Virus record (IMG/VR): IMGVR_UViG_3300044655_001269 | Coordinates: 7,836-71,835 of that record | Source: a virus | Taxonomy: Duplodnaviria; Caudoviricetes | Length of the DNA: 64,000 bases | Reading direction: 5' to 3' (one strand) | In this document: piece after piece, positions 1-53,826 of the stretch | Layout: each line of letters opens with the position of its first letter | Position numbering within the stretch: position 1 is the first letter of the stretch | Notes under the pieces: generated by a model | The model's input: the letters and a program-made list of their open reading frames with translations, nothing else | Databases searched by the model: none | Told to the model about the DNA's origin: nothing | Program-made: the position numbers and the translations under genes

Positions 1-1
1 A

Positions 2-199
2 TTTGACCTTATCAGTCATGTTAGAGGCACAGAGTATCTAGCATTCATTGATGAAACTGTAACTGAATTGGAAATACCTTTGAATGCTGATGACAATGAA
101 CGTGTTGAACAAGCATTGAATGATACTGAATTTAGCCACCCTTACTTATGGGCAGTAATTGCAAAACGTGCATTAGATGAACAATTAACAAACCAATAA
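2..199 (+). CDS. Hypothetical acidic protein, 3' part (truncated by window edge)
   Basis: Open frame from position 2 (FDLISHVRG...QLTNQ) to TAA at 197-199, followed by a small hairpin. Confidence 0.6.
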   Translation, partial: FDLISHVRGTEYLAFIDETVTELEIPLNADDNERVEQALNDTEFSHPYLWAVIAKRALDEQLTNQ

Positions 200-239
200 A
201 ACACTCACTGCCAAGGACGGCAACCCTAAAAGATAATGC

Positions 240-268
240 TTGACAATATTGCAATTATCTTTTAGAAT
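240..268 (+). promoter_or_regulatory. sigma70-like early promoter driving tRNA-Met, straddled by an inverted pair of CTAAAAGATAAT sites
   Basis: TTGACA(240-245)-N17-TAGAAT(263-268); 12-mer at 226-237 (+) and 254-265 (-). Confidence 0.75.
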
Positions 269-276
269 ATACAAAT

Positions 277-352
277 GCCATTATAGCATAACGGTTAATG
301 CCGCGTACTCATAATGCGTAAGATCGGGGTTCGAATCCCTGTAATGGCACCA
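277..352 (+). tRNA. tRNA with CAT anticodon (elongator Met or Ile2), encoded CCA
   Basis: Acceptor GCCATTA/TAATGGC, anticodon arm GCGTA-CTCATAA-TGCGT, TTCGAAT T-loop, 3' ACCA. G1-C72 is paired, so not an initiator. Confidence 0.92.
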
Positions 353-373
353 ACTAACATAAAGGTAAAGACA

Positions 374-514
374 ATGACAGCAAAAAGCAAATTAAAGATA
401 AGACAAGCAAAACGTGAACAATTCGTTGAAGACTACATAAGATACTTTCTATCCACTGGCATTGCGTTGAATAGAACCCAGTCAAAGAAAGTAATCAAAC
501 AGTTTTACTCTTAA
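374..514 (+). CDS. Small basic hypothetical protein (start moved to MTAKSK; the upstream part of the ORF call overlaps the tRNA)
   Basis: AAGG SD upstream of ATG 374. Confidence 0.55.
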   Translation: MTAKSKLKIRQAKREQFVEDYIRYFLSTGIALNRTQSKKVIKQFYS

Positions 515-540
515 GGGAGAAAGAACATGAACCAGATAAT

Positions 541-725
541 TCGTTGTGTTAAGGTAGTACCCGTCAATACAGGAGTAGTGCCTTGTATTGGCAACCCAGA
601 TAGATTAGCAGGAGTAGTGCCTTGCGGATCTATCACCCAAAGGAGGCTAGTATCGGAGTAGTGCCTGATATTAGCACCTGATGTACTCTCACCTCGCCCA
701 GTTCTTGTAGCTGGGCATTTTTTTG
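541..725 (+). ncRNA. Candidate small RNA: three hairpins each with loop AGUAGUG, then an intrinsic terminator
   Basis: Hairpins 565-590, 599-634 and 646-675 have unrelated stems but the same GG-AGTAGTG-CCT apex; terminator GCCCAG..CTGGGC plus T run at 696-724; no ORF. Confidence 0.65.
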
Positions 726-738
726 TCTAGGAGATTAT

Positions 739-1401
739 ATGAAGATAACAGAAAAGAAACAATACTGCTACGATATGTTAAATTCCAAGGTCGAATTGGA
801 TACTAACTGGTTAATACAAGAAGTGTTTAGTAACCATGAAAATTGGGACTTAAAATGCGGAGATGGTGTGTCGCATATATCAATAGCCAAATCACCAAAC
901 CATCCGACTAAATGTTTTTATATCCATCGTGTTGACGGTACGTTTACTGATATAGGAATAGGTGCGGCATTATCACCACCAAAGCCATATCAGAAAATTG
1001 CAATGGCTTGCAGAACCGCAATACTTCCTAGTATAGACCTATTCCGAGAAACCGTTAATTATGGTAAACAACAATGTACAATAACCAATACCGTGTTAAC
1101 ACGGGATAATTCACACATAGACCATCATACACCACAGTTTAACGAGATAGTCAAAGATTGGATAGCTAACGCATCATTTACTTACGATGACCTTGTGTTT
1201 ATTGTCGATAAAGCCATTGATAAAAACGTCGATAACAGTAGTATAACATCATTCACTAATCAAGAATTAGCAAATGATTTTAGAAAGTATCATGATTCCG
1301 TTGCAGTTCTTAGGTGTATAACTGGTAAAGAGAATCTCAGACGCGAGAAAACAACTGCATTAGCTGACCATTTTACTATTCTTAAAAATAGTAAAAGATA
1401 A
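739..1401 (+). CDS. DUF3223/DCL-like domain protein with C-terminal HNH-like motif
   Basis: TKCFYIHRVDGTFTDIG resembles DUF3223; later HIDH...H...N pattern; GGAG SD. Confidence 0.55.
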   Translation: MKITEKKQYCYDMLNSKVELDTNWLIQEVFSNHENWDLKCGDGVSHISIAKSPNHPTKCFYIHRVDGTFTDIGIGAALSPPKPYQKIAMACRTAILPSIDLFRETVNYGKQQCTITNTVLTRDNSHIDHHTPQFNEIVKDWIANASFTYDDLVFIVDKAIDKNVDNSSITSFTNQELANDFRKYHDSVAVLRCITGKENLRREKTTALADHFTILKNSKR

Positions 1402-1469
1402 TAGTTGACAACTGGGTATAGTTCAACTATACTATACCCACCTTAACAAAGCACTACGGAGTAATTAAA

Positions 1470-1883
1470 ATGGCAACAAGAAGCACAATCGCAATGGTAT
1501 TACCAAACGGAACAATTCAATCAATTTACTGCCACTGGGACGGCTACCTAGACGGGGTAGGTCAAACCTTAGCAGAACACTACAACAAAAGAAAAACAAT
1601 CCAACTACTTGCCAATGGTGACGTTAGTTCACTAAAAGATTTCGTAGGACATAAGCATGACTTCAACCGTTCAGTTAAAGTCAAAAGCACCACGTTCTAT
1701 GGACGTGATAGAGGCGAAACTGGCATTGAAAGTCGTAACCATGCCAATGTAGATGAATGGCTTAGATTCCGTGATGGTGGCGAATACTTCTACCTGCTAC
1801 AAGGCAAACAATGGTGGTATTGCAACTGCTATGATGTAACAGAACTAACACCAATAGTTATTGGATTATTAACAAAAGACTAA
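1470..1883 (+). CDS. Conserved phage hypothetical protein (IYCHWDGY family)
   Basis: MATRSTIA...SIYCHWDGY motif common in phage early regions; cassette leader. Confidence 0.8.
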   Translation: MATRSTIAMVLPNGTIQSIYCHWDGYLDGVGQTLAEHYNKRKTIQLLANGDVSSLKDFVGHKHDFNRSVKVKSTTFYGRDRGETGIESRNHANVDEWLRFRDGGEYFYLLQGKQWWYCNCYDVTELTPIVIGLLTKD

Positions 1884-1957
1884 AAGATAATAGTTGACAA
1901 CTGGGTATAGTTCAACTATACTATACCCACCTTAACAAGCACTACGGAGTAAACAAC

Positions 1958-2269
1958 ATGAAAGCATACCTAGACCAACTCGTAATGGTGAACGTATTAG
2001 ACTATAACCGTTCAGAATGGCAAGATGATATATCTTACTACCAAATCAACAAAGGTTTTCAAATCGCAGTAGTTAAAAATGACAAACAACACACAGTTGA
2101 TAAGTTTCAGTTTGATTACGAAACAGACGTTGTAACTGTACAAACAACGTCAGAAGTCGATAATGGCGAATGGGACGGTGAATGGTACTTGGAATTTGAC
2201 GACATAACACCAGACCAACTTATCATTGAACGAGTAACCAGAGTTACCCTAGAAGAACTACAAGGGTAA
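1958..2269 (+). CDS. Hypothetical acidic early protein
   Basis: Cassette promoter, leader and SD. Confidence 0.8.
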   Translation: MKAYLDQLVMVNVLDYNRSEWQDDISYYQINKGFQIAVVKNDKQHTVDKFQFDYETDVVTVQTTSEVDNGEWDGEWYLEFDDITPDQLIIERVTRVTLEELQG

Positions 2270-2354
2270 AGTGGCTAAAAGATAACTCAATCATCTTTTA
2301 GCCACTTTACCCGCTGTGACATAACACACCTATACGTACACGAGAGAGCAACCA

Positions 2355-2564
2355 ATGGAAAACGCACCCGAACTAGCCGCCACTATCATTTTTGCATTGA
2401 TAATGCTATCTATATTCGCAACAGTGCTAACCTTATTCATTAAGGTTGCTTTCTGGTTTGTTATGGTCGGATTGCTTATCTTTGGTACGGTCGGAATCAT
2501 TGGCAGTGGTGGCGCGGGATACCTAGTCATGTTAGCTGTCGGATATTACCTGTTCAAAAGATAA
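2355..2564 (+). CDS. Small membrane protein
   Basis: Almost wholly hydrophobic 69 aa. Confidence 0.65.
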   Translation: MENAPELAATIIFALIMLSIFATVLTLFIKVAFWFVMVGLLIFGTVGIIGSGGAGYLVMLAVGYYLFKR

Positions 2565-2568
2565 CACA

Positions 2569-2700
2569 ATGAAAACAATAATTGCAATACAATCAATCAT
2601 CATAATAACACTTTTAGCCATGTTGACAATGACAGTCGAGTATGATAACATTCTTCTCGAACCTGTTAACTTAAACGGGATAATGATTTACCCAACATAG
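2569..2700 (+). CDS. Small single-TM protein (43 aa, not in ORF track)
   Basis: MKTIIAIQSIIIITLLAML...; fills the gap between neighbours. Confidence 0.45.
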   Translation: MKTIIAIQSIIIITLLAMLTMTVEYDNILLEPVNLNGIMIYPT

Positions 2701-2709
2701 AGGCAACCC

Positions 2710-2898
2710 ATGTGTAGAAGAACCGATGGACTAACCCAGTTTGAAGTCTACTTCGAGAAGTACGATTACAACTTCACTAAACGTACCATTACCCAGTATG
2801 ATTATATTACTATATCAGATGAAGACAATGCAAGAAAGATGGCTCATTATAAACACGGTAGTGCGATTAACATAATCCATGTTAAACCAGCAGACTAA
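2710..2898 (+). CDS. Hypothetical protein
   Basis: GAGG SD; codirectional. Confidence 0.65.
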   Translation: MCRRTDGLTQFEVYFEKYDYNFTKRTITQYDYITISDEDNARKMAHYKHGSAINIIHVKPAD

Positions 2899-2946
2899 AG
2901 ATTATATTATGCGAGCGCGTTAGCGCGAGCTGTAAAAGGAGAAACC

Positions 2947-3192
2947 ATGAACGTACTAGATCGCATGAAAACAGACATCAACTCAGTGATAGGCTTAACA
3001 CTTAGCCTAGACTTAGGAGGTTCAAAGCCTATCATTGGCGAAGTAGTCAATACCAAGCAAAGCGAATGGAATAACCTCATAGACGGTGTAATGACTACGT
3101 GGTACTCGTATTCAGTATCTTTTGGCGACTGTTGTTATTATCCTGTAGATTGTTTAACGAAAGTTGTTGACAATGTAGGCATAAACGATTAA
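2947..3192 (+). CDS. Hypothetical protein
   Basis: AGGAG SD; preceded by a GCGA-stem-GAGC hairpin. Confidence 0.7.
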   Translation: MNVLDRMKTDINSVIGLTLSLDLGGSKPIIGEVVNTKQSEWNNLIDGVMTTWYSYSVSFGDCCYYPVDCLTKVVDNVGIND

Positions 3193-3231
3193 ACTATACC
3201 CACCTTAACAAAGCACTACGGAGATACAAAG

Positions 3232-3426
3232 ATGAGCGCATTAACTACACCAGAACAAATCAACAGATTCCAGTTATTAACCTTGAAATCAGCACTTGGA
3301 TTAGAAATCAAAGGATTGAAAGGTCGTGGAAAATCAGCAAACACAGTAGCTTGCCAGCTACTAGGATTACCAAAAGGCACGAAGAAAACAATTACATACG
3401 CATACTTAGTGCAAGCAATAGGATAA
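3232..3426 (+). CDS. Small basic hypothetical early protein
   Basis: Cassette leader and GGAG SD. Confidence 0.75.
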   Translation: MSALTTPEQINRFQLLTLKSALGLEIKGLKGRGKSANTVACQLLGLPKGTKKTITYAYLVQAIG

Positions 3427-3497
3427 AAAGAGTTGACAACTGGGTACATTGAGAATACAATGTACCCACCTTAACAAAGCACTACAGGACAAACAAA

Positions 3498-3686
3498 ATG
3501 ATTATCTTACTCGTATCACTTTACTTCACACCAGTTGACATGAACAACGATACACCAACTAAGGTGGCGCGTAACTTCACAACCACTGCTGAATGCGAAT
3601 CCTACAAAGCACAAATTACACCAGCATTAAACCACGCATTAGAAGAAGGTTTAATCGGATACGCGGCAACCTGCCAATCAAAATAA
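3498..3686 (+). CDS. Small secreted or membrane protein with Cys pair
   Basis: Hydrophobic N-terminus; cassette leader. Confidence 0.7.
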   Translation: MIILLVSLYFTPVDMNNDTPTKVARNFTTTAECESYKAQITPALNHALEEGLIGYAATCQSK

Positions 3687-3752
3687 TAGTTGACAACTGG
3701 GTACAGAACAACTATACTGTACCCACTTTAACAAAACCAAGAGGCACTACAA

Positions 3753-3911
3753 ATGAAAGAACTATTCCCATATCAATTTAACTTCATCGGTATGTACGGT
3801 ACAGAAGAAACTATCGTTATCAACGCGCAATCATCGACCAAAGCAAACGAGTTATTCGAGCAGTTCTTCCCATACGCAACCGAAGTAGAATTAGTTAAAG
3901 ACTTCGCATAA
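3753..3911 (+). CDS. Hypothetical 52-aa protein (not in ORF track)
   Basis: GAGGCACTAC leader, ATG 3753, MKELFPYQF...KDFA*. Confidence 0.7.
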   Translation: MKELFPYQFNFIGMYGTEETIVINAQSSTKANELFEQFFPYATEVELVKDFA

Positions 3912-3978
3912 AAAAGATTTGACAACTGGGTACATTCGCCTTTATAATGTACCCACCTTAACCAAAAAGAGAAAAACA

Positions 3979-4197
3979 ATGAAAGAAATCATAACATCAA
4001 TCATCTTATCAGTAATCACCTTAGCAAGTGCTTACTTTATCTATAGAGCAGTAGAACCAACAGTAGGCTATCAAGTAGGTTTCTGCAAAACTCTGTATAA
4101 AGGCAATAACGATAAGATAAACCAATGCCTAGACAACTATGACGAAATGCACAACCGTACTGGCATCTATGACGAAAATGGCAAACCAGTACAATAA
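3979..4197 (+). CDS. Membrane-anchored hypothetical protein (start MKEIIT)
   Basis: N-terminal TM segment; cassette promoter. Confidence 0.7.
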   Translation: MKEIITSIILSVITLASAYFIYRAVEPTVGYQVGFCKTLYKGNNDKINQCLDNYDEMHNRTGIYDENGKPVQ

Positions 4198-4264
4198 AAC
4201 AGTTGACAATGAAGTAATTATCTTTTAGAATATAACCACCTTAACAAAGCACTGGAGTATTACA

Positions 4265-4441
4265 ATGAGCATCTATCAAGAAAATGGCTACCAAAACCGC
4301 AAAGACTACTTGAATAACCTAGCAGATGACTTTGGCATCGACCGCGAAACAGTCTTCTTCTACGCAAGTACACTCGGCCCAGATGAAGACTTTGACGGCT
4401 TAGTTACAAACCTTGAAGACTTAATGCTAGAAGACCACTAA
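4265..4441 (+). CDS. Conserved small phage protein (MSIYQENGY...EDFDGLV; not in ORF track)
   Basis: Cassette promoter and GGAG SD; 58 aa. Confidence 0.75.
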   Translation: MSIYQENGYQNRKDYLNNLADDFGIDRETVFFYASTLGPDEDFDGLVTNLEDLMLEDH

Positions 4442-4512
4442 AAAACAATTGACAAATCTCGCGGGTAGGCATATACTACCCGCACCTTAACAAAACCAAG
4501 AGGCACTACCAA

Positions 4513-4671
4513 ATGAATATTGAACAATTAAGAGACGAATTAGTCGATGATGCACTAGATACCTGTTTAGAAGACGTTGGATACTTGAAAAGCATTTTAC
4601 AAAGTTACTTTGCCATCGAAACCGAAGACCGTATCATACAACTACATAACGAAGCATTTGGCGATAGATAA
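4513..4671 (+). CDS. Hypothetical 52-aa acidic protein (not in ORF track)
   Basis: GAGGCACTAC leader, ATG 4513. Confidence 0.7.
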   Translation: MNIEQLRDELVDDALDTCLEDVGYLKSILQSYFAIETEDRIIQLHNEAFGDR

Positions 4672-4737
4672 CTAAAAGATAACTCAATGCAAGGCTTGCG
4701 AGCGCAAAGCGCGAGCCTTGTAATCAAGAGAACGACC

Positions 4738-5349
4738 ATGAGAATAAAAGACTTAACAGAAATGTCAATAGCAGCATACGGTGAATGGGACGCGGATTTA
4801 GCCTATACAGATATTACAATGGGATATATGAAAAACAAATACACCCACGTCGGTACTATCCATGCGGCAGACCAAGACTTTCATATCTACAAATTAAGCA
4901 ACTTCTTTGAATATGTCATCGGTTTCGTAGCAGATACCTACGACATTAACCACGAAGACATAAGAACCAAGTTTAAAGTATCTGCTGAAATGAGCCTTGA
5001 AAAAATGCAAGACTTTGAACATTATAGTAACATACTAAGCGTTAAAGCCGTCAAGGTGGTCAGTAAATTGCGAAGTCGTGGTATCGCACCAGAAATCTAT
5101 AAATTCTTCATTAACGCAGGTTATACGCTAATGGGTGGCGAAGAACAATACTACGGTGCAAGATTACTATGGAAGAAGTTTAGCAACTCACCAATTTACC
5201 AAGTAGACATTGTAGACATTGCAACTAACACCATACTAGAAACCAATGTTAAATTACACCACGGTGAAGAAGACTACGACTTCGACCAAAGAGTTTGGGC
5301 TTATACCCCAGAAAAGAAAGACATTAGATTGATTCTAACTAAAAGATAA
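4738..5349 (+). CDS. GNAT-fold acetyltransferase-like protein with MRIKDLTE leader
   Basis: V..KLRSRGIAPEIY acetyl-CoA motif A; start moved to 4738. Confidence 0.6.
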   Translation: MRIKDLTEMSIAAYGEWDADLAYTDITMGYMKNKYTHVGTIHAADQDFHIYKLSNFFEYVIGFVADTYDINHEDIRTKFKVSAEMSLEKMQDFEHYSNILSVKAVKVVSKLRSRGIAPEIYKFFINAGYTLMGGEEQYYGARLLWKKFSNSPIYQVDIVDIATNTILETNVKLHHGEEDYDFDQRVWAYTPEKKDIRLILTKR

Positions 5350-5414
5350 TACTTGACAGTGCGTTAATTATCTTTTAGAATAGCACCACCTTAACAAAAC
5401 AAGAGGCACTACCC

Positions 5415-5603
5415 ATGAGTAACTACAGTCCAATTACCATTGATATGTACGAAGTCCTAACCCTAGAAGGTAGAATGAGATTACTTGACTATGTAGTAAG
5501 AGATTTAGAACAATACAGCGAAAGTTTAGAATACCAATTAGAACTAGATAACCTACAAGACGATTTAAAACCAGTAGTAAACCAGTTATTAAAACAGTTA
5601 TAA
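5415..5603 (+). CDS. Hypothetical protein
   Basis: Cassette promoter and leader. Confidence 0.7.
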   Translation: MSNYSPITIDMYEVLTLEGRMRLLDYVVRDLEQYSESLEYQLELDNLQDDLKPVVNQLLKQL

Positions 5604-5678
5604 ACAAATAGGTATGTTAGGCTCGCGAGCGCAACGCGCGAGCCTTGTACACCCCTTAAAACACAAATAGGCACTACC

Positions 5679-5807
5679 ATGAACAAACAACCTAAACCAA
5701 AAGAAACAGTCAAAGACCTAGCCAAACAGCTCGGATTCGACAACAAAACAATCCAGCTACTAAGCGCGGCAACCATTGGCAAAACAAATCCAAAATTCAA
5801 AGTGTAG
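5679..5807 (+). CDS. Small basic protein, 42 aa (not in ORF track)
   Basis: AGGCACTACC-ATG leader. Confidence 0.55.
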   Translation: MNKQPKPKETVKDLAKQLGFDNKTIQLLSAATIGKTNPKFKV

Positions 5808-5816
5808 TGCAAATCC

Positions 5817-5937
5817 ACTGGGCATGGAAACCTAACCAACGCCCAGTAACAAGGTGGTCAATGCGGGAGTAGTGACCCTAGTATACCACCACTGAAACAA
5901 CCTAACAGAAGTAGTGCTCTGTTAGGTTTTTCTTTTT
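5817..5937 (+). ncRNA. Second candidate AGUAGUG-loop RNA (two motif hairpins, the last doubling as terminator)
   Basis: Hairpins 5853-5890 (loop AGTAGTG 5868-5874) and 5899-5928 (loop AGTAGTGC 5910-5917) plus T run; CTGGGC/GCCCAG stem as in the first locus. Confidence 0.55.
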
Positions 5938-6016
5938 CTAAAAGATAATGCTTGACAACGAATCAATTTACGATTAAACTATACCCAACTTAACAAGCAC
6001 TACCGGAGCAAAAACC

Positions 6017-6439
6017 ATGAAAGCATACGAAGTAATCGACACAAGCACAATCCCAACTGGCGCGTTATTCATTAGCATCAAAGACAATCAAGTCAATGCA
6101 CACTATGGCGAAACTTGGATTATCGGTGATGACGTGTTCAGTATGTCAAGTTCAACTTATCTAGGCGAATCATTCACACCTGTAACCAAACCAACAGTCA
6201 TCGAATTGCCATTGACACTAAATGAAATAACCGACAAAGCACCACCACTATGGGCAAGCTACCTAACCGTATCTGGTAGCGGTAACGTAACCTACTGGGA
6301 GTACGAACCAACCAAAGAATCTAACACTGATGACTACGATTCTTACTTCTATGATTGCCATGTACTAAACGAATCAGTAGGTAAAACTAAACTACCTTAC
6401 TTCTACCAAAATTGCTACCATATCCACGATTTACTGTAG
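6017..6439 (+). CDS. Hypothetical early protein
   Basis: Cassette promoter, leader and GGAG SD. Confidence 0.8.
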   Translation: MKAYEVIDTSTIPTGALFISIKDNQVNAHYGETWIIGDDVFSMSSSTYLGESFTPVTKPTVIELPLTLNEITDKAPPLWASYLTVSGSGNVTYWEYEPTKESNTDDYDSYFYDCHVLNESVGKTKLPYFYQNCYHIHDLL

Positions 6440-6546
6440 AATTCACATTACCCGCTGTGAGTACACACCACTCACGCGGGTAATTATACATACATACACA
6501 TATAACCCAGCGAGCGCAACGCGCGAGCCATAACAAAAGGATCCTT

Positions 6547-6705
6547 ATGCTACTACCAGTTACCAACGAACAACACGAAACGATCTATATTAACACAAAA
6601 TACATCGTTTCACTTAAACCACTGGAAAACGGCACGGTCATTAACCTAATCACCGAAACCTTAACAGTCCACGAAACCATCGACCATATCAAAATATCAT
6701 GCTAA
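6547..6705 (+). CDS. FlbD-like small protein (not in ORF track)
   Basis: MLLPVTNE..TIYINTKYIVSL....GTVINL....TVHET resembles the FlbD family; AAGGA SD. Confidence 0.5.
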   Translation: MLLPVTNEQHETIYINTKYIVSLKPLENGTVINLITETLTVHETIDHIKISC

Positions 6706-6911
6706 AATATATCTTAATCTTATTGCTCACTGGGTGTACTGCTGGGCCTGTCTATGAGGCAACCTATCCAATCTATGAAACAGACACCACCTACATTCCG
6801 GGCCATCCAGTATACCTCAAAGAGTATAACTACGTCCCACATTATCGCTATGGCGACTATCGCAGAGGATACTACGATAAAAGACGCTACGCAAGACGCC
6901 ACAGATACTGA
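6699..6911 (+). CDS. Putative lipoprotein with Arg/Tyr-rich tail
   Basis: Lipobox LLTG-C. Confidence 0.6.
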   Translation: MLKYILILLLTGCTAGPVYEATYPIYETDTTYIPGHPVYLKEYNYVPHYRYGDYRRGYYDKRRYARRHRY

Positions 6912-7048
6912 GTACCCGCTGTGAGTACCCACGCCTATACGTGCATTATACATATATACGCACGTATAGGCAAAAATAAAGTTGACAATGGGTACATTTG
7001 CCTTTAGAATGTACCCACCTTAACAAAAGCACTACAGGAAACAACGCT

Positions 7049-7252
7049 ATGTCAAACTACATCACAGTTACTAAAAAACCTAACTTCAAAACACAACACC
7101 CAATCGATGCACTTGCGGCAGTCTGCCTACAAGTCTGCGGTGGTGGCTATACAGCAAGCCAAACAGCACAAGCAATGCAATTACAAAGCAAAGTACGCAC
7201 TGCTGGCAAAGCTACCAAAAACGGAATCACTATTGCCTTATCTTTTTCTTGA
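7049..7252 (+). CDS. Hypothetical early protein (start MSNYIT)
   Basis: Cassette leader. Confidence 0.7.
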   Translation: MSNYITVTKKPNFKTQHPIDALAAVCLQVCGGGYTASQTAQAMQLQSKVRTAGKATKNGITIALSFS

Positions 7253-7316
7253 CATTAGGTCAGATATCTTTTAGACTATTGCCAACTTAAACAAAAGCAC
7301 TACAGGAATTAAGACA

Positions 7317-7574
7317 ATGAAAAAAGATTATAAACCATGCAAAATCGTTTCAGATAAAACCACTGGCAACAAATACATTTATCTGATTACTGACAATAAA
7401 TCAATGCCAGACACGCTTGACGGCTTAATCGCATTACCAGATTCATTCAAAGTGACACTATACGTCGAACCCATTCTGAAACAGTTGAAAAAACTAGGTT
7501 ACACAGTAAAAGGCAGTCGTTTCCTGTCACAAAAAACAGGCAACGTGGAAACTGAATTGTTTATCGCAATTTAA
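7317..7574 (+). CDS. Hypothetical early protein
   Basis: Cassette leader. Confidence 0.75.
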   Translation: MKKDYKPCKIVSDKTTGNKYIYLITDNKSMPDTLDGLIALPDSFKVTLYVEPILKQLKKLGYTVKGSRFLSQKTGNVETELFIAI

Positions 7575-7643
7575 ACTTGACAATGGGTATATTATCTTTT
7601 AGACTATAACCTCACTAAACAACAGCACTACAGGAAATTTAAA

Positions 7644-7991
7644 ATGACTACTACAACTTTAGACTTAACTGCAATCCACACACAAGCAACATTAGCCGCT
7701 GAAACTGCGGCACGCGAATACTTTATCAATAAACTAGGTGGTGTTGATAAATTCGCCTGCGGTTTCGCTTGGGTTCGCATTGAACAACGCATTCGTGCCA
7801 ATAGCAAACTAGGTAAACAACTTGAAAGTCTAGGATTCGATAAAGGTTATACTTCAAAATGCTTTGAGTTATGGAATCCTAGCAGACTTCACGTTCAAAA
7901 CGTGGATACACTCGAAGCAGGCGCACAAGCATACGCAAAAGTCCTACGCGATAACGGCATCGAAGCCTATGCTTGCAGTAGACTAGATTAA
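7644..7991 (+). CDS. Conserved phage hypothetical protein (CGFAWV...SRLD family)
   Basis: Recognisable motif; cassette leader. Confidence 0.8.
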   Translation: MTTTTLDLTAIHTQATLAAETAAREYFINKLGGVDKFACGFAWVRIEQRIRANSKLGKQLESLGFDKGYTSKCFELWNPSRLHVQNVDTLEAGAQAYAKVLRDNGIEAYACSRLD

Positions 7992-8064
7992 AAATAAATT
8001 TGACAGTGAGGTTATAATCCATTAGACTATAACCTCACTAAACAAGCACTACAGGAAACAAACA

Positions 8065-8367
8065 ATGAAAGCATTAAAATCATTTACTACAGGTAGAACA
8101 TACGATGCAGCTCAAGTCCTAGAGTTTGCCATTCTAGCATCAATTCCAGATACTAATGGATTTTATGATAACGTCATCGTGTTTAATGACGCATCACGTC
8201 ACATAACAGGCGTTTCACGCATTTTCAATATCGATGCTACCTTAACAGGTAATGACGTATTAGCGGCTTATGATGCTGGTAATTATACAGGTATATCAAC
8301 AGACGAGTTTAATCATTGCTTATCTGACGATAGATACGCATATACAAAAGCAAAGTCAATGATTTAA
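8065..8367 (+). CDS. Hypothetical early protein
   Basis: Cassette leader. Confidence 0.75.
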   Translation: MKALKSFTTGRTYDAAQVLEFAILASIPDTNGFYDNVIVFNDASRHITGVSRIFNIDATLTGNDVLAAYDAGNYTGISTDEFNHCLSDDRYAYTKAKSMI

Positions 8368-8511
8368 TCTTAGATAACTGGCAGGCACACCACCTGCCAG
8401 TTACCCGCTGAAAGCATACACGTCTATACGCGTATATGAATTTAGATGTTGACATTAGGTACATTATCTTTTAGAATATACCCACCTTAACAGCACTACG
8501 GAGTAAACATC

Positions 8512-8805
8512 ATGGCAACATCAAAAACAGTGAAAGCAGTACGCGCATTTGGTGGCTCAAACACTTTTGGCGTAAACGTAGAAGTCGCGCTATCTGCTAC
8601 AGGCGCATGGTTTCAACGTGCCTATGCCTACAATGGTTATGCGAAAGCATGGACAAAATGGCAAGCATTCGAGCCTGTATGGTCTACGACCATTACCAAT
8701 GCCTACAGTGGCGAAGTATCAGAACGTGAAGAGCCTGCCCTGCAATATGGGTGGTCTGTCCTAAGCGAATACAAGGACGTTCCACGCTATCGCCTACCAG
8801 CGTAA
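8512..8805 (+). CDS. Hypothetical early protein
   Basis: Cassette leader. Confidence 0.75.
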   Translation: MATSKTVKAVRAFGGSNTFGVNVEVALSATGAWFQRAYAYNGYAKAWTKWQAFEPVWSTTITNAYSGEVSEREEPALQYGWSVLSEYKDVPRYRLPA

Positions 8806-8893
8806 AAAGATTTGACAAGGTGTGTAATTCGTGTAGAATATGCACCAAGTCAAACGGCTTGCTCTTTTCACTACACTTTATAGGATTCATACC

Positions 8894-9214
8894 ATGAACG
8901 CGAATAATCAAAACTTAACCTACGTTGTAAACTTTGTTGTAGAAGTACCTGCTGATTTATGGGACAATGTAGAATTGTCTTTTAATCTAGGCGATTGGTC
9001 GTTCTATGATGCTGATGCAATCAGTGAAACAGACGGTATCGTAACCGCGTCAATCAAACTCGAATCATCGTCATTTTGGTCGAATGTAGAACGTGCTAAA
9101 GCCGCTTATGACGATGCCAGCGAATCCTTTGCTAATCCTAGCATTGCGTTTGGTGATTACAAGGCAATCGAAACAAAATCAGAATTGTACACAATACGCG
9201 AGTACGGTATCTAA
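8894..9214 (+). CDS. Hypothetical acidic protein (start MNANNQ)
   Basis: TTGACA..TAGAAT promoter, AGGA SD. Confidence 0.7.
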   Translation: MNANNQNLTYVVNFVVEVPADLWDNVELSFNLGDWSFYDADAISETDGIVTASIKLESSSFWSNVERAKAAYDDASESFANPSIAFGDYKAIETKSELYTIREYGI

Positions 9215-9382
9215 GCTCGAACGAGCTGTGACGGGCGTTAAATCAGCATAAAACGCCCGTTACCCGCTGTAATGATATACGCCTATACGCGTATAATGCG
9301 TTATGCAAAAATAAATTTGACATGGTAGCAACAAACCGTTAAACTATACCCACCTTAACAAAAGCACTACAGGATTCAAACC

Positions 9383-10117
9383 ATGTTTAATTATTCATTT
9401 ACAGCGGTATCACAAAATTCAAAAACAGGTAACATTGCAGTTACTAGCACGTCAAGTGATTCATGCCCTACTTCATGCCCTTTCATTAAAACCGTTATCG
9501 TAGACGCGGTTAAAATGCAATTAAACGGGTGTTATGCTGATTATAGCTATACTGGTATAGCATGGCGTAAATTGGATAAAAAAGGCTTAGACTTTAAAGC
9601 CTTGTTATCTAACATTCGTCATATGGATAAAGGCGCAAAATTGCGTATAAATGTTATGGGTGATTTACCGCACGAAAATCAAGTAATTGACACAACAAAA
9701 TTGAATCAATTAGCCGATACCGTAGCCGTTAGAAAACTAAACACAATTCTTTACAGTCATCATGATTTAACCATTGAAAGCAATTTAATTGCTTTTCAAT
9801 CAGCATTTAAACAAGGTTTACACGTCAATGCTTCATGTGAAAGCATTGAACAAGCAAAAACGGCTTTAGATAATGGCATTAACGCGGTTTTAGTTATGCC
9901 ATTGAATAGCCCTAAAGTACAAAAGATTGATGACGTTAAAGTCGTGCAATGCCCTAATGAATATAATGAAAAAATACAGTGCATTAACTGTATGTTATGC
10001 GCAAAGGATAGAACGCAAAACCGCGTCATTATTGGATTTACAGCGCATGGAACGGGCAAAACGAAAGTATCTAAAGCCGTAATTGATGCTAATAGAAAAT
10101 ATCAAACTAAAGCCTAA
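9383..10117 (+). CDS. Gp88-like Cys-rich (radical-SAM-like, Fe-S) protein
   Basis: CPxxCP...GCYA, R....GD, YSH, CP...CxxCxxC...F.AHG motifs. Confidence 0.6.
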   Translation: MFNYSFTAVSQNSKTGNIAVTSTSSDSCPTSCPFIKTVIVDAVKMQLNGCYADYSYTGIAWRKLDKKGLDFKALLSNIRHMDKGAKLRINVMGDLPHENQVIDTTKLNQLADTVAVRKLNTILYSHHDLTIESNLIAFQSAFKQGLHVNASCESIEQAKTALDNGINAVLVMPLNSPKVQKIDDVKVVQCPNEYNEKIQCINCMLCAKDRTQNRVIIGFTAHGTGKTKVSKAVIDANRKYQTKA

Positions 10118-10265
10118 ACCGCGTGAATACTGGTATTCAATGGATTGAATACCAGCTCGCTCAAAATAATTTGACATTGCCGTGAATTGCTGTAGAATAT
10201 GCCACAAGTTAAGCAAAACGCTTAACGGGCAAAATCACTTAATCACTAAAAATAGGTAACTTATC

Positions 10266-10832
10266 ATGAAAGCAATCATCGAAACAGTAAAATCTTTAAT
10301 CGCTAATGGTAGCACGTTTGCTAGCATTGAATACACTACGCAAGTTAAAACTAGTGCTAAATTCAAAGATATTAAAATCATGAAACAGTCTAAAGCCAAT
10401 GTAACGCTATTCGGTACACTCAAAGATTTTGAAGTTTATCAACGTGCCGTGATTAAATCAGCAAACAAAATTGACGGGCAATCAATCAATAATTTTGAAG
10501 TAAGCGATACATATTTTGAACATGATAAAACTTGCTTTTCAATCGTTAATCATAAAACTAATGGCACGGCTTACCTGTACGCTATCTTTAACAATGCCAG
10601 TAAATCAGTCTATACAATAGACGGTATTGAAGTGGATAAAATCACGGTATCACAATACTTAACAAACAGTGAAAAAGATAAACTGTTAGGCGATAATTCA
10701 ATAGTCTACAATAAAACCAATGACGTTATTCATTCTACCATTGTTCGTACTATCAAAATCGAAAACATTACAGCGATTAAAGCAAACAAAATGACGTTAG
10801 AATTGAACGCTAAAACCGCGTTACACGCCTAA
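10266..10832 (+). CDS. Hypothetical protein
   Basis: Own TTGACA/TAGAAT promoter; 188-aa ORF. Confidence 0.75.
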   Translation: MKAIIETVKSLIANGSTFASIEYTTQVKTSAKFKDIKIMKQSKANVTLFGTLKDFEVYQRAVIKSANKIDGQSINNFEVSDTYFEHDKTCFSIVNHKTNGTAYLYAIFNNASKSVYTIDGIEVDKITVSQYLTNSEKDKLLGDNSIVYNKTNDVIHSTIVRTIKIENITAIKANKMTLELNAKTALHA

Positions 10833-11259
10833 ACCGCATAGACTGATAGACTGGTATTACTTATCAGTCTATCACGCCTTAAACGGCAATTATGAACGAT
10901 TTAAGCCTATACATTAAAACGGTATAGGCTACCAGTTAAAACAGATAACCACTAAAGGGTTAAACTCATAGACTTGACATAATGTCAAGTCTTTTTTATT
11001 GTAGAATATACTTGACAAGCACGGCAAAACGTGGTAGCAGGTCGTTCGGGCGAAAAAGGGCTATCACAGCTCGCGCAAAATGTCAAGCACTTTCGACTCG
11101 AAAATAAAAGAAAAAAAGGTTGACAAGGTGCAAAAAGGTGTGGTATAATATACGGGTGTATATACGGAGGCGGGGGTTGGAAAAGGGTACCCCCTATTTC
11201 ATAAGTACCTCCCCTGTATTTTTTACGCGGCTCGATTTTTGAGAAACCGTACCCTTTTT

Positions 11260-11765
11260 CGGGCCTGAACCCTAAAAGATAATTAACCTACTATAGACTC
11301 TACTATAGACTCTACTATAGACCTATCCTAAAAGATAATTAACCCACAATACCCGACCCCTGGCCCTTACAACCCTAGGCTTTACAATAGTTCTACAATA
11401 AATCTACAATAAATCAATTATCTTTTAGAATACAGAACCGCTGAGGCCTGAACCTTCTATACCCAATTGAATCAGACCCTGCCAACTGCTCTTGACAGTG
11501 TCGAGGGTGAACTTTACCATAAACTCTACAATCGACTTCACGGTAAACAATATAGAGTACCCTTAGTGGGTTTTGCATATTGGAGACCGTGGAAACCAAT
11601 GCACTCTACTGTAGAATCGATTCTGAAAAATTCTGGCCGCCCAGAAAATGCAGAGGCTGTACCTTTTACCATAAACTAGATTGGGCACGGCCTGAACCGC
11701 GCAGCATTATCTTTTAGGCCGTTCACGGCCGTGAAAATCAGAACAGCTGAGGCCTGAACCCTGCC
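11260..11765. repeat. Non-coding repeat cluster (possible origin or genome-end region)
   Basis: CTACTATAGAC(T) x3 tandem (11288-11322); GGCCTGAACC x4; four CTAAAAGATAAT sites; strand composition changes across it. Confidence 0.6.
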
Positions 11766-11867
11766 AATTGTCCGCCGGGATTGTGATGAAAAATAGAATT
11801 TTATCGTGTTTTAGGGTAGTAGGAGCGTGTTCATAAATACGACATAATTACAAACGAGAGAATAAGA

Positions 11868-12629
11868 ATGATACATTATCATGGTACCCCAGTTGGAGGT
11901 AGCAGGCAGGATGTTGCTAGGTTTTTAGTAGGACGACATGCGTTGATCCCATTTGGTCGTCAGGACGATGTAGGACCGGTGTTAGAGTTTTGTCAGACGT
12001 TTTGTTTAGACAACGGTGCATTTTCCCATTGGAAGAAGGGATCTGGTAGAATAGATTTTGATGCTTATTTGAATTGGGTACATACGTTGTATCGCCACCC
12101 TGGATTTGATTGGGCATTGATTCCAGATATCATTGATGGGACTGAGGCTGACAACAAAGCCTGGGTATTACAATGGATTAGAACGGGGACAAGGGCAAAG
12201 GGTGTTCCAGTTTGGCATTTGCATGAATCTTTAGAATATCTTGAGTGGTTAGTTGAGAATTTTGAGATTGTTGCATTGGGAAGTTCTGGTGAGTATGCCA
12301 CTCCAAATACTGATAAGTGGTGGGACAGAATGGATGAAGCGATGGCGGTTGCTTGTGATTCTCAAGGTAGGCCTAGGTGTAAACTGCATGGTTTGCGAAT
12401 GTTAAATACGGCAGTGTTTACCAAATTACCGTTATCGTCAGCTGACAGTACAAACGCTGCAGTGAACGCTGGGAGTTTGTCAAGGTTTGGTATGTACAAA
12501 CCAGCGACGTCAGCACAGCGTGCTGCTGTGATAGCCGATAGGATCGAATCGCACAATAGTTCTGCAGTTTGGACAGGAGCGGTTGGCGCGACAGGAAACA
12601 TGTTTGCAAACTTATTCACTATAGTTTGA
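11868..12629 (+). CDS. TGT/DpdA-like TIM-barrel protein (possible DNA base-exchange enzyme)
   Basis: LDNGAFS, PD.I, PVWH, LHGL and SADST motifs; TAAATA upstream. Confidence 0.55.
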   Translation: MIHYHGTPVGGSRQDVARFLVGRHALIPFGRQDDVGPVLEFCQTFCLDNGAFSHWKKGSGRIDFDAYLNWVHTLYRHPGFDWALIPDIIDGTEADNKAWVLQWIRTGTRAKGVPVWHLHESLEYLEWLVENFEIVALGSSGEYATPNTDKWWDRMDEAMAVACDSQGRPRCKLHGLRMLNTAVFTKLPLSSADSTNAAVNAGSLSRFGMYKPATSAQRAAVIADRIESHNSSAVWTGAVGATGNMFANLFTIV

Positions 12630-38881: not shown

Positions 38882-38956
38882 TGGCTCCATCGGATGGACT
38901 CGAACCACCGGCATGAAAATTAACAGTTTTCCGTTCTACCGCTGAACTACGATGGA
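38882..38956 (-). tRNA. tRNA-Asn(GTT)
   Basis: TCCATCG/CGATGGA acceptor, CTGTTAA loop, TTCGAGT, G-CCA end. Confidence 0.92.
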
Positions 38957-38984
38957 TTAATGTATTGTAAGTCATTGATTTATA

Positions 38985-39060
38985 TGGAGCCGGAGACACG
39001 GATCGAACGCGCGACAAACTACGTACTAAGCAGTTGCTCTACCAACTGAGCTACACCGGC
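38985..39060 (-). tRNA. tRNA-Thr(AGT)
   Basis: GCCGGTG acceptor, ACTGC-TTAGTAC-GTAGT anticodon arm, TTCGATC, CCA end. Confidence 0.8.
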
Positions 39061-53748: not shown

Positions 53749-53826
53749 AACTGTATTTAGCCTATATTATAGGCGCAAAGTTGCGAGGCACGTTAGTGCC
53801 GAGCCATTGCCAATTACCACATAAAG

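Follow-up and report, generated by a model that had tools for sequence, protein, structure and literature searches.

What does a string of three hairpins do when each displays the same heptamer in its loop, and when the complement of that heptamer lies beside the ribosome-binding sites (RBSs) of the early genes on the same strand? This arrangement occupies positions 541-725 of a 64,000-nucleotide stretch of DNA from an uncultured giant phage of fresh water (Duplodnaviria; Caudoviricetes), referred to here as the window, which corresponds to bases 7836-71835 of the 71.8 kb IMG/VR virus record IMGVR_UViG_3300044655_001269 (estimated completeness 20 %). Judged from sequence analysis, there is about an even chance that the element is a trans-acting, multivalent kissing-loop antisense RNA that represses the translation of early genes. 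The early-type region takes up the first ~17 kb of the record and consists of small genes on the + strand; each of them is preceded by a sigma-70 promoter close to consensus and by a short leader that is very similar from gene to gene.

An initial annotation of this DNA had described three consecutive hairpins followed by a terminator, and these fold as described. The minimum free energy of the + strand RNA from 515 to 730 is -74.1 kcal/mol (z = -3.77), against z = -1.15 for the opposite strand. GTAGTGC occurs on the + strand at 575, 614, and 658, in each case within an 8-nucleotide loop. The parts of the element are as follows, with the pairing statistics taken from the alignment of relatives discussed below.

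553..690, + strand: closing helix around the three hairpins (553-560 with 683-690); 7 pairs, 90.5 % of cells paired, 1 pair changed on both sides.
563..592, + strand: hairpin H1, stem 563-573/582-592, loop 574-581 (A followed by GUAGUGC); 11 pairs, 100 % of cells paired, 6 pairs changed on both sides, loop opening 0.65 kcal/mol.
599..634, + strand: hairpin H2, stem 599-612/621-634, loop 613-620; 13 pairs, 96.2 % paired, 4 pairs changed on both sides, loop opening 0.56 kcal/mol.
646..675, + strand: hairpin H3, stem 646-656/665-675, loop 657-664; 10 pairs, 98.3 % paired, 3 pairs changed on both sides, loop opening 0.53 kcal/mol.
696..724, + strand: intrinsic terminator, stem 696-703/709-716, T run 718-724 (7 T); 8 pairs, 100 % paired, in 6/6 sequences.
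5899..5928, + strand: fourth hairpin with the loop A followed by GUAGUGC, itself an intrinsic terminator (11-bp stem, T-rich tail).

No stretch homologous to the hairpin at 5899-5928 was found in the relatives' loci examined. One relative has another intergenic hairpin with a GTAGTGC loop (L152, 5845-5882), and a similar hairpin in the late region of the window (53775-53805) reads TTAGTGC.

Relatives were located by scanning metagenome contigs for the early leader with the 7-8 positions of the box left free, which gave 25 loci, 24 of them true relatives. A homologue of the element is present in six of the relative contigs, representing four further variants: L142, L135, L138 (L156 is nearly identical), and L139 (identical to L144). 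The covariation alignment comprised six sequences from five variants, with 49 pairs and hence 294 pair cells. Standard pairs fill 97.3 % of these cells; column shuffles retain 89.2 %, with 0 of 500 reaching the observed value, and sliding the 3′ partners by 1-3 columns leaves 30-42 % paired. Fourteen of the 49 pairs are changed on both sides (six in H1, four in H2, three in H3, and one in the closing helix), and the covariation score is 0.384 compared with 0.210 in shuffles (0/500). G-U pairs account for 32 of the 294 cells in a tally of the alignment. Because each of them would become an A-C mismatch on the opposite strand, the structured molecule is an RNA of the + strand.

While stems and flanks change, GUAGUGC is unchanged in every hairpin of every variant, with one unpaired A or U 5′ of the heptamer. 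The longer apex GG-AGTAGTG-CCT that had been reported as shared by the hairpins is present in the window, but only the heptamer is kept in the relatives. The flank GGA..CCU of the window becomes GAA..UCG, GGU..ACC, or GGG-U..CCC in other variants, so that loops of the window and L142 read GGA-GUAGUGC and those of L135, L138, and L139 read GAA-, GGU-, or GUA-GUAGUGC. GGA is the core of CsrA-type sites. Since the flank varies, a CsrA-type loop or a loop mimicking the Shine-Dalgarno (SD) sequence was rejected when tested directly, and a 9-nucleotide pairing is removed as a conserved feature. A CRISPR-repeat-like or other tandem-repeat element was likewise rejected, as repetition is confined to the loop and each of the three hairpins has a different stem.

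The exact complement of the heptamer, GCACTAC, is present at all 15 leader positions that the initial annotation had given.

1451, 1939, 3213, 3479, 3744, 4503, 5406, 5671, 5997, 7029, 7297, 7625, 8046, 8493, and 9364, + strand: GCACUAC boxes in 15 early leaders of the window (span 1451..9370).

A further 15 box-bearing leaders lie upstream of the window (G000:C1:407-7786), giving 30 in the whole 71.8 kb record. The window holds 23 matches to the motif on both strands against 5.14 expected (standard deviation 2.49), and 0 of 100 shuffles reach 23. In an unbiased count over the record, GCACTAC is the commonest leader 7-mer (26 of 32 promoter cassettes), and among the 25 commonest it is the only one with its reverse complement in same-strand hairpin loops. 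Four hairpins display that complement, on uninterrupted stems of 11, 5, 11, and 11 bp. When the record and the 25 relatives' loci are taken together, and an uninterrupted stem of at least 5 bp is required, 18 of 29 sense-strand occurrences of GTAGTGC fall in a hairpin loop, against 0 of 133 for GCACTAC.

The position of the box is tied to the RBS. Two arrangements were distinguished: in type A leaders the box is followed by GGAG or AGGA, and in type B leaders (A)GAG is followed by the box, 1-3 nucleotides, and ATG. Among 106 distinct 60-nucleotide contexts in the same set of sequences, 82 are type A, 19 are type B, and five lie elsewhere. The box is also found at promoter-less internal RBSs, with a GC-rich hairpin 5′ of them. 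The two arrangements and the promoter-less occurrences indicate that the box travels with the RBS and not with the promoter. In the relatives' matched leaders, where the box positions had been left free, GCACTAC occupies 43 of 44 and GCACTAT one; the 45th match is in the one unrelated locus. The GC-rich hairpin is 25 nucleotides long with a 10-bp stem, precedes promoter-less type B leaders at 5620-5644 of the window and at G000:C1 ~1261-1285, and recurs in relatives L147, L152, L155, and L158.

These placements bear on a very improbable explanation with two forms, in which the locus is either an orientation-independent repressor site on double-stranded DNA or a small protein gene (527-661, 44 amino acids, with a repeated GVVPC motif). 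The DNA site would account for the presence of the motif in both orientations. It was nevertheless rejected: the opposite-sense copies sit in covarying stems with G-U pairs, which a DNA site does not need, and the forward copies keep a constant position with respect to the RBS, not to the promoter, and occur at promoter-less RBSs. Together, the RBS-linked box and the covarying RNA stems argue against an orientation-free site on duplex DNA. The protein form likewise failed its direct test, as the neighbouring genes make clear.

The window variant of the transcription unit is headed by a promoter at 240 and runs through a tRNA gene and a small open reading frame (ORF), ORF46, to the hairpin RNA and its terminator.

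240..268, + strand: early-type sigma-70 promoter, TTGACA-17-TAGAAT, 11 of 12 consensus matches.
277..352, + strand: tRNA-Met (CAU), from ARAGORN; Rfam tRNA, 64 bits.
374..514, + strand: ORF46, a small basic protein with no function assigned; conserved and always directly upstream of the hairpin RNA.
527..661, + strand: 44-codon ORF overlapping H1-H3, with RBS and ATG.

The promoter and tRNA-Met cassette (226-355) behaves as an indel, being present in the window and L138 and missing from L135, L139, and L142. In these three, which lack the promoter at 240, the hairpin unit must be read from further upstream. Two more tRNA genes, for Asn (GTT) and Thr (AGT), lie on the - strand at 38882-39060.

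ORF46 is present in 5/5 variants, with synonymous to non-synonymous changes of 13:4 against L135 and 5:0 against L138, and 9:5 and 7:2 in other comparisons. For the ORF at 527-661 the corresponding ratios are 1:17 against L138, 4:13 against L135, and 0:11 between L138 and L135, and its changes are distributed over all three codon positions. These contrasting ratios mark ORF46 as a real gene and the ORF over the hairpins as unconstrained as a protein. An RBS and ATG are kept in 4/5 variants and the frame is preserved, as a protein gene would have it; however, the changes do not favour third positions, the GVVPC motif is not conserved, and L139/L144 lack the start. The ORF was therefore rejected as a small protein gene, on both purifying selection and a conserved start, and probably does not encode a functional protein. 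It may still be translated. The frame is kept over the hairpins (loop spacings of 39 nucleotides, then 44, 41, or 38; a 3-nucleotide indel after the ATG), with the consequence that the UAG inside loop 3 is always a stop codon. Ribosomes may run through H1 and H2, which would matter for folding. In L139 (1040-1130, equivalent to L144 1240-1330), the RBS and ATG of this ORF are replaced by an extra upstream module with two small GC hairpins and a duplicated 5′ box, in which a fourth GTAGTGC follows an ATG to give an ATG-TAG start-stop.

The position of ORF46 also bears on the possibility that the hairpins are sites for an RNA-binding protein, either of the phage (ORF46, for example) or of the host, which three identical loops would recruit or titrate, the complementarity to the leaders being incidental or only competing with the protein. 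This is considered fairly unlikely. Identical loops on varying stems are the usual appearance of protein operators, ORF46 is conserved, basic, predicted to form two helices, and always adjacent, and the support for RNA-RNA pairing is complementarity, which is not direct. A protein site leaves unexplained why the loop should exactly complement the commonest leader 7-mer, and why there is a second complementary box, described below. Nor is GGA conserved in the loops, and ORF46 has no family or structural match: none was found in Pfam or PHROG, and its predicted structure (a two-helix hairpin, predicted local distance difference test score of 85) matched nothing in the PDB at E<=0.001 (best E = 7.9). 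In L135, where the gene is on the minus strand, an in-frame TAG at codon 36 shortens ORF46 to 35 amino acids.

A role in cis is quite improbable. Under this explanation, the stacked hairpins together with the terminator would protect the ORF46 mRNA from 3′ exonucleases, or adjust the level of read-through into the gene at 739-1401, which lacks a promoter. The element is indeed at the end of an operon, directly before a strong terminator, and the next gene in the window has an RBS and no promoter of its own. Stability or attenuation would, however, need the stems and not an invariant loop heptamer, and there is a promoter 3′ of the terminator in L135, L139, L142, and L138, so control of read-through is not conserved; the match to the leaders is also ignored. 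The gene at 739-1401, directly 3′ of the terminator, is a DUF3223 (PF11523) gene of 220 amino acids; in its place, relatives have an early promoter and a different gene.

Both partners of the proposed antisense contact are accessible. RNAcofold, which permits no pairing inside a closed hairpin loop, was not used for loop-leader pairing; instead, duplex and opening energies were summed. Opening costs 0.53-0.65 kcal/mol for the hairpin loops and a median of 0.9 kcal/mol for the leader boxes, and by nearest-neighbour rules the 7-bp GUAGUGC/GCACUAC duplex is worth -9.2 kcal/mol, a net of about -7 to -8 kcal/mol per contact. It had also been claimed that pairing extends over 9 nucleotides with a leader variant. 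The AGGCACTAC variants exist, at 3744, 4503, 5406, and 5671, but the extension is not conserved in the relatives, and its duplex of -14.1 kcal/mol is offset by opening costs of ~5.4 (5.2-5.5) and 2.4 kcal/mol. The 9-nucleotide version gains nothing over 7 bp and was rejected as a conserved feature.

A second complementary sequence lies in the 5′ part of the element. The initial annotation gave it as TGTTAAGGT at 547-555, and it is present there, although the last T is particular to the window variant.

547..554, + strand: 5′ box UGUUAAGG, complementary to CCUUAACA at the predicted 5′ end of the early leaders.

UGUUAAGG is invariant in the 5/5 variants that cover it. Its duplex with CCUUAACA amounts to -8.2 kcal/mol; its last bases are inside the closing helix, and the opening cost is 3.9 kcal/mol.

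In the proposed mechanism, the 3′ part of the early unit of ORF46, hairpins, and terminator would act, as such or after processing, as a non-coding RNA of ~140-190 nucleotides. Within its closing helix, three hairpins would each present GUAGUGC in an open 8-nucleotide loop, and each loop could form a 7-bp loop-to-linear helix of the kissing type with a GCACUAC box. The putative targets are ~30 early mRNAs with the box directly 5′ of the SD (type A) or between SD and AUG (type B). A helix at either site would fall in the footprint of the 30S subunit, so that initiation would be blocked, the mRNA exposed to decay, or both. Being stable, capped by a terminator, and made early, the RNA would accumulate and could cause a delayed shut-off of the early class as a block, as an RNA counterpart of the T4 RegA/RegB proteins. 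Multivalence would come from the three loops per molecule together with the terminator-loop copy at 5899-5928. The loop-seed small RNA (sRNA) that the initial annotation had proposed is borne out in part, as a structured + strand RNA with invariant, accessible loops and a box that follows the RBS; we infer that contact between the two RNAs takes place, that it leads to repression and not to activation or protection, and when it does so.

The same complementarity would serve if the pairing were real and its sign positive, with the loops protecting or activating early mRNAs, for instance by tethering them or by covering a nuclease site next to the SD. In favour of such a role, the SD itself is left unpaired in type A leaders. 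In type B leaders, however, the helix lies between SD and AUG, where a bound RNA normally blocks the 30S subunit in sRNA action. The sequence gives no evidence for or against a positive effect, to which we give a low probability.

Several points weigh against an antisense RNA that represses early genes. The evidence from RNA libraries consists of contigs from two runs, none of them listed over 541-725. Both loop and box are invariant across the loci of the 24 true relatives, with no compensatory change of loop and leader seen; as both are invariant, their agreement could be a single historical coincidence. The chance of a 7-mer matching a leader of ~30 nucleotides is, on our own post hoc estimate, ~1e-3 to 1e-2. 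By nearest-neighbour rules a 7-bp helix is weak, although kissing contacts can far exceed the stability that these rules predict (PMC4138328). One gene with three loops is set against ~30 strong promoters, an unfavourable stoichiometry unless the RNA has a much higher stability or works catalytically with the help of an RNase. In addition, the promoter of the RNA is of the early type, with the same timing as its supposed targets; stoichiometry and simultaneous early expression thus count against a simple titration model. That an RBS, an ATG, and the frame are kept across the hairpins hints that ribosomes may translate through these. The order of UGUUAAGG and the loop heptamers is opposite to that expected for one continuous duplex with the leader, and if both boxes act on one leader the geometry would have to be a bent two-helix contact. 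Finally, 33 of 123 distinct promoter cassettes lack the box, and ~10 of these are true family members with GCACTAT, GCACCAC, GCACTAA, GCACT-GGAG, or no box; leaders with a lost or mutated box are presumably still functional.

With regard to transcripts, two freshwater metatranscriptome runs contained 5-6 % of the sampled words and yielded contig pieces from the early regions of relatives, 8 in one run and 18 in the other. One piece covers 388-531, and no listed piece covers 541-725; such contigs cannot show transcription, ends, or strand.

Searches for further copies and analogues were made with several patterns. The exact two-loop pattern matched nine IMG/VR loci, none a relative: the six displayed are plain tandem repeats and the other three have periodic motif spacing. 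The three-loop pattern matched 28 IMG/VR loci and at least 119 stretches in GTDB genome contigs. Among 108 loci screened, 11 matches with hairpin-like flanks (nine loci) were all rejected as tandem direct repeats. The terminator pattern had 0 matches in IMG/VR. With the protein of 739-1401 as an anchor, no relative was found in IMG/VR or metagenome contigs, and this protein has only two homologues, without context. The leader pattern found only L013 in IMG/VR, which begins downstream of the element, and L013 was also the sole true relative among 38 loci matching a looser promoter-leader pattern. An Rfam cmscan of window 1-12000 at E<=1 returned only tRNA and four sub-threshold matches (Plastid-ycf2 and microRNA families).

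In more distant phages the element and the box are both missing. RNA model R1 found no match at E<0.5 in the five large terminase relatives G001-G005 (0/5; best E = 0.57). G001, G003, G004, G005, and the Klebsiella phage RaK2 have other leaders and neither box nor element, and this co-occurrence is the only phylogenetic signal. No clustered hairpin loops complementary to leaders were found in these five genomes; the complements of leader 7-mers in their loops are scattered single matches on stems of 5-7 bp, taken as background.

Loop-seed antisense regulation is in itself already known. In Staphylococcus aureus, several loops of RNAIII and the Rsa RNAs, all with the same short seed, pair with the RBS regions of several mRNAs. 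These regulators belong to the host, and their C-rich loops are directed at the SD itself, whereas the putative seed here is directed at a phage-specific box and all its targets carry the same duplicated leader. Protein sponges of the CsrB/RsmZ type likewise consist of hairpins in series, with a repeated motif in the loops and a terminator at the end; the element differs from them in that the GGA of the window loops is not conserved in relatives and the heptamer, which is conserved, does not correspond to a CsrA-type site. Known phage antisense RNAs such as c4, sar, and OOP have single targets.

The closest known system is the c4 RNA of P1/P7, a same-strand antisense RNA in which complementary sequences, likely in loops, cover the RBS of ant and block its translation (PMC12197685). 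Like c4, the element is phage-encoded, structured, and on the same strand, with loops (GUAGUGC) complementary to a sequence (GCACUAC) beside the SD of its targets. It differs in that c4 has one target, ant, and serves the immunity of temperate phages, whereas here the heptamer occurs 3-4 times against ~30 early mRNAs in a giant myovirus of lytic type. The c4 antisense RNA family has the Rfam accession RF01695 (PMC2864571). As this model had no match in the Rfam scan of window 1-12000 at E<=1, the likeness is one of working and not of membership or homology. The element shares two features with trans-acting base-pairing sRNAs of the Hfq/ProQ type, an intrinsic terminator with a U tail (in 6/6 sequences) and a conserved, accessible seed complementary to the RBS regions of its putative targets. 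No phage RNA directed against a leader common to an early gene class was described in the literature consulted, including parts of a 2025 review of phage sRNAs (PMC12197685).

In T4, two early proteins, RegB and RegA, inactivate early mRNAs at the SD, where RegB cuts GGAG (PMC3014915). The proposed RNA would resemble them as an early factor acting on many early mRNAs at or beside the SD, with class-wide shut-off; they differ in being proteins that rely on protein-RNA recognition (of GGAG for RegB) rather than on base pairing to a dedicated 7-nucleotide box. A terminator hairpin loop can also take part in target regulation, as for the iron-uptake genes regulated by Escherichia coli sRNAs (PMC11979758). 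The terminator loop at 5899-5928 might act in this way, although no repeated loop motif is found in that system.

A broader proposal, to which we give somewhat less than an even chance, is that a lytic giant phage uses one multivalent kissing-loop RNA, and not a protein, as a class-wide switch. Three or four GUAGUGC loops would dock on a dedicated 7-nucleotide box beside the RBS of every early (host-takeover) gene, timing the early shut-off or holding the mRNAs together, and box and loop together would constitute a portable address code, private to the phage and post-transcriptional, spreading along with the duplicated promoter-leader cassette. If true, an RNA addressing ~30 mRNAs through a dedicated common box would be a new regulatory design for phages, and class-wide shut-off, for which the known precedents are proteins such as T4 RegA/RegB, would be achieved by RNA. 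The duplicated promoter-leader cassettes of giant phages would then carry post-transcriptional as well as transcriptional information, and loop and box would offer a compact orthogonal pair with which translation could be controlled in synthetic systems. The case lends itself unusually well to testing, as both partners are short and the natural variants are ready stem-swap controls.

Among 10 large ORFs scanned, the genes found in the window include a large terminase, a tail sheath of 1159 amino acids, helicases, and a UvsX-like recombinase. In this partial annotation, neither an integrase nor an antirepressor was found among them. Based on the terminase, the nearest cultured phages are RaK2-like giant myoviruses of ~350 kb, at 37-38 % identity. 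A blastn comparison of window 1-3000 with cultured phages gave no match. Uncultured relatives are numerous, and one is a 364 kb record rated complete.

Other features were observed in the early promoters. A perfect inverted repeat of 8-11 bp is present in 18 of 32 (for example at 1405-1445, 3433-3470, 4449-4485, and 8000-8035 of the window; also G000:C1:361-7760). Its left arm lies in the spacer just past the -35 box, and its right arm extends from where the -10 box ends to ~+1, stopping just before CCTTAACA. The arms have at least six different sequences and therefore covary, and 7 bp is reached in only 1.4 % of shuffled segments. Possible explanations of the repeat are a cruciform in the DNA and a family of operators; alternatively, read-through transcripts may contain it as an RNA hairpin that serves as a signal for processing or stability. 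In addition, CTAAAAGATAAT is found 5′ of the -35 box in 10 of 32 promoters and is the reverse complement of ATTATCTTTTAG, which is in the spacer of seven of 32. Both are present in two promoters, one of them the promoter at 240 that heads the hairpin-RNA unit; their positions include window 226-237 with 254-265 and 5339-5350 with 5367-5378, and they occur at other promoters too.

The leaders of the distant relatives have features of their own. Their consensus often includes AGGAGCGAAC: the conserved early leaders of L130 (G001), L132 (G003), L160-L162 (G004), and L163-L164 (G005) end in an extended form of it before the ATG, and G005 leaders have a CACTGCA..NN..TGCAGTG hairpin at the 5′ end. 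In the Klebsiella phage RaK2 (L166, 225-242 kb), the early promoters have a common CAGTACTG directly before TATAAT, and several of the early leaders begin with a conserved GGGGATACA..TGTATCCCC hairpin.

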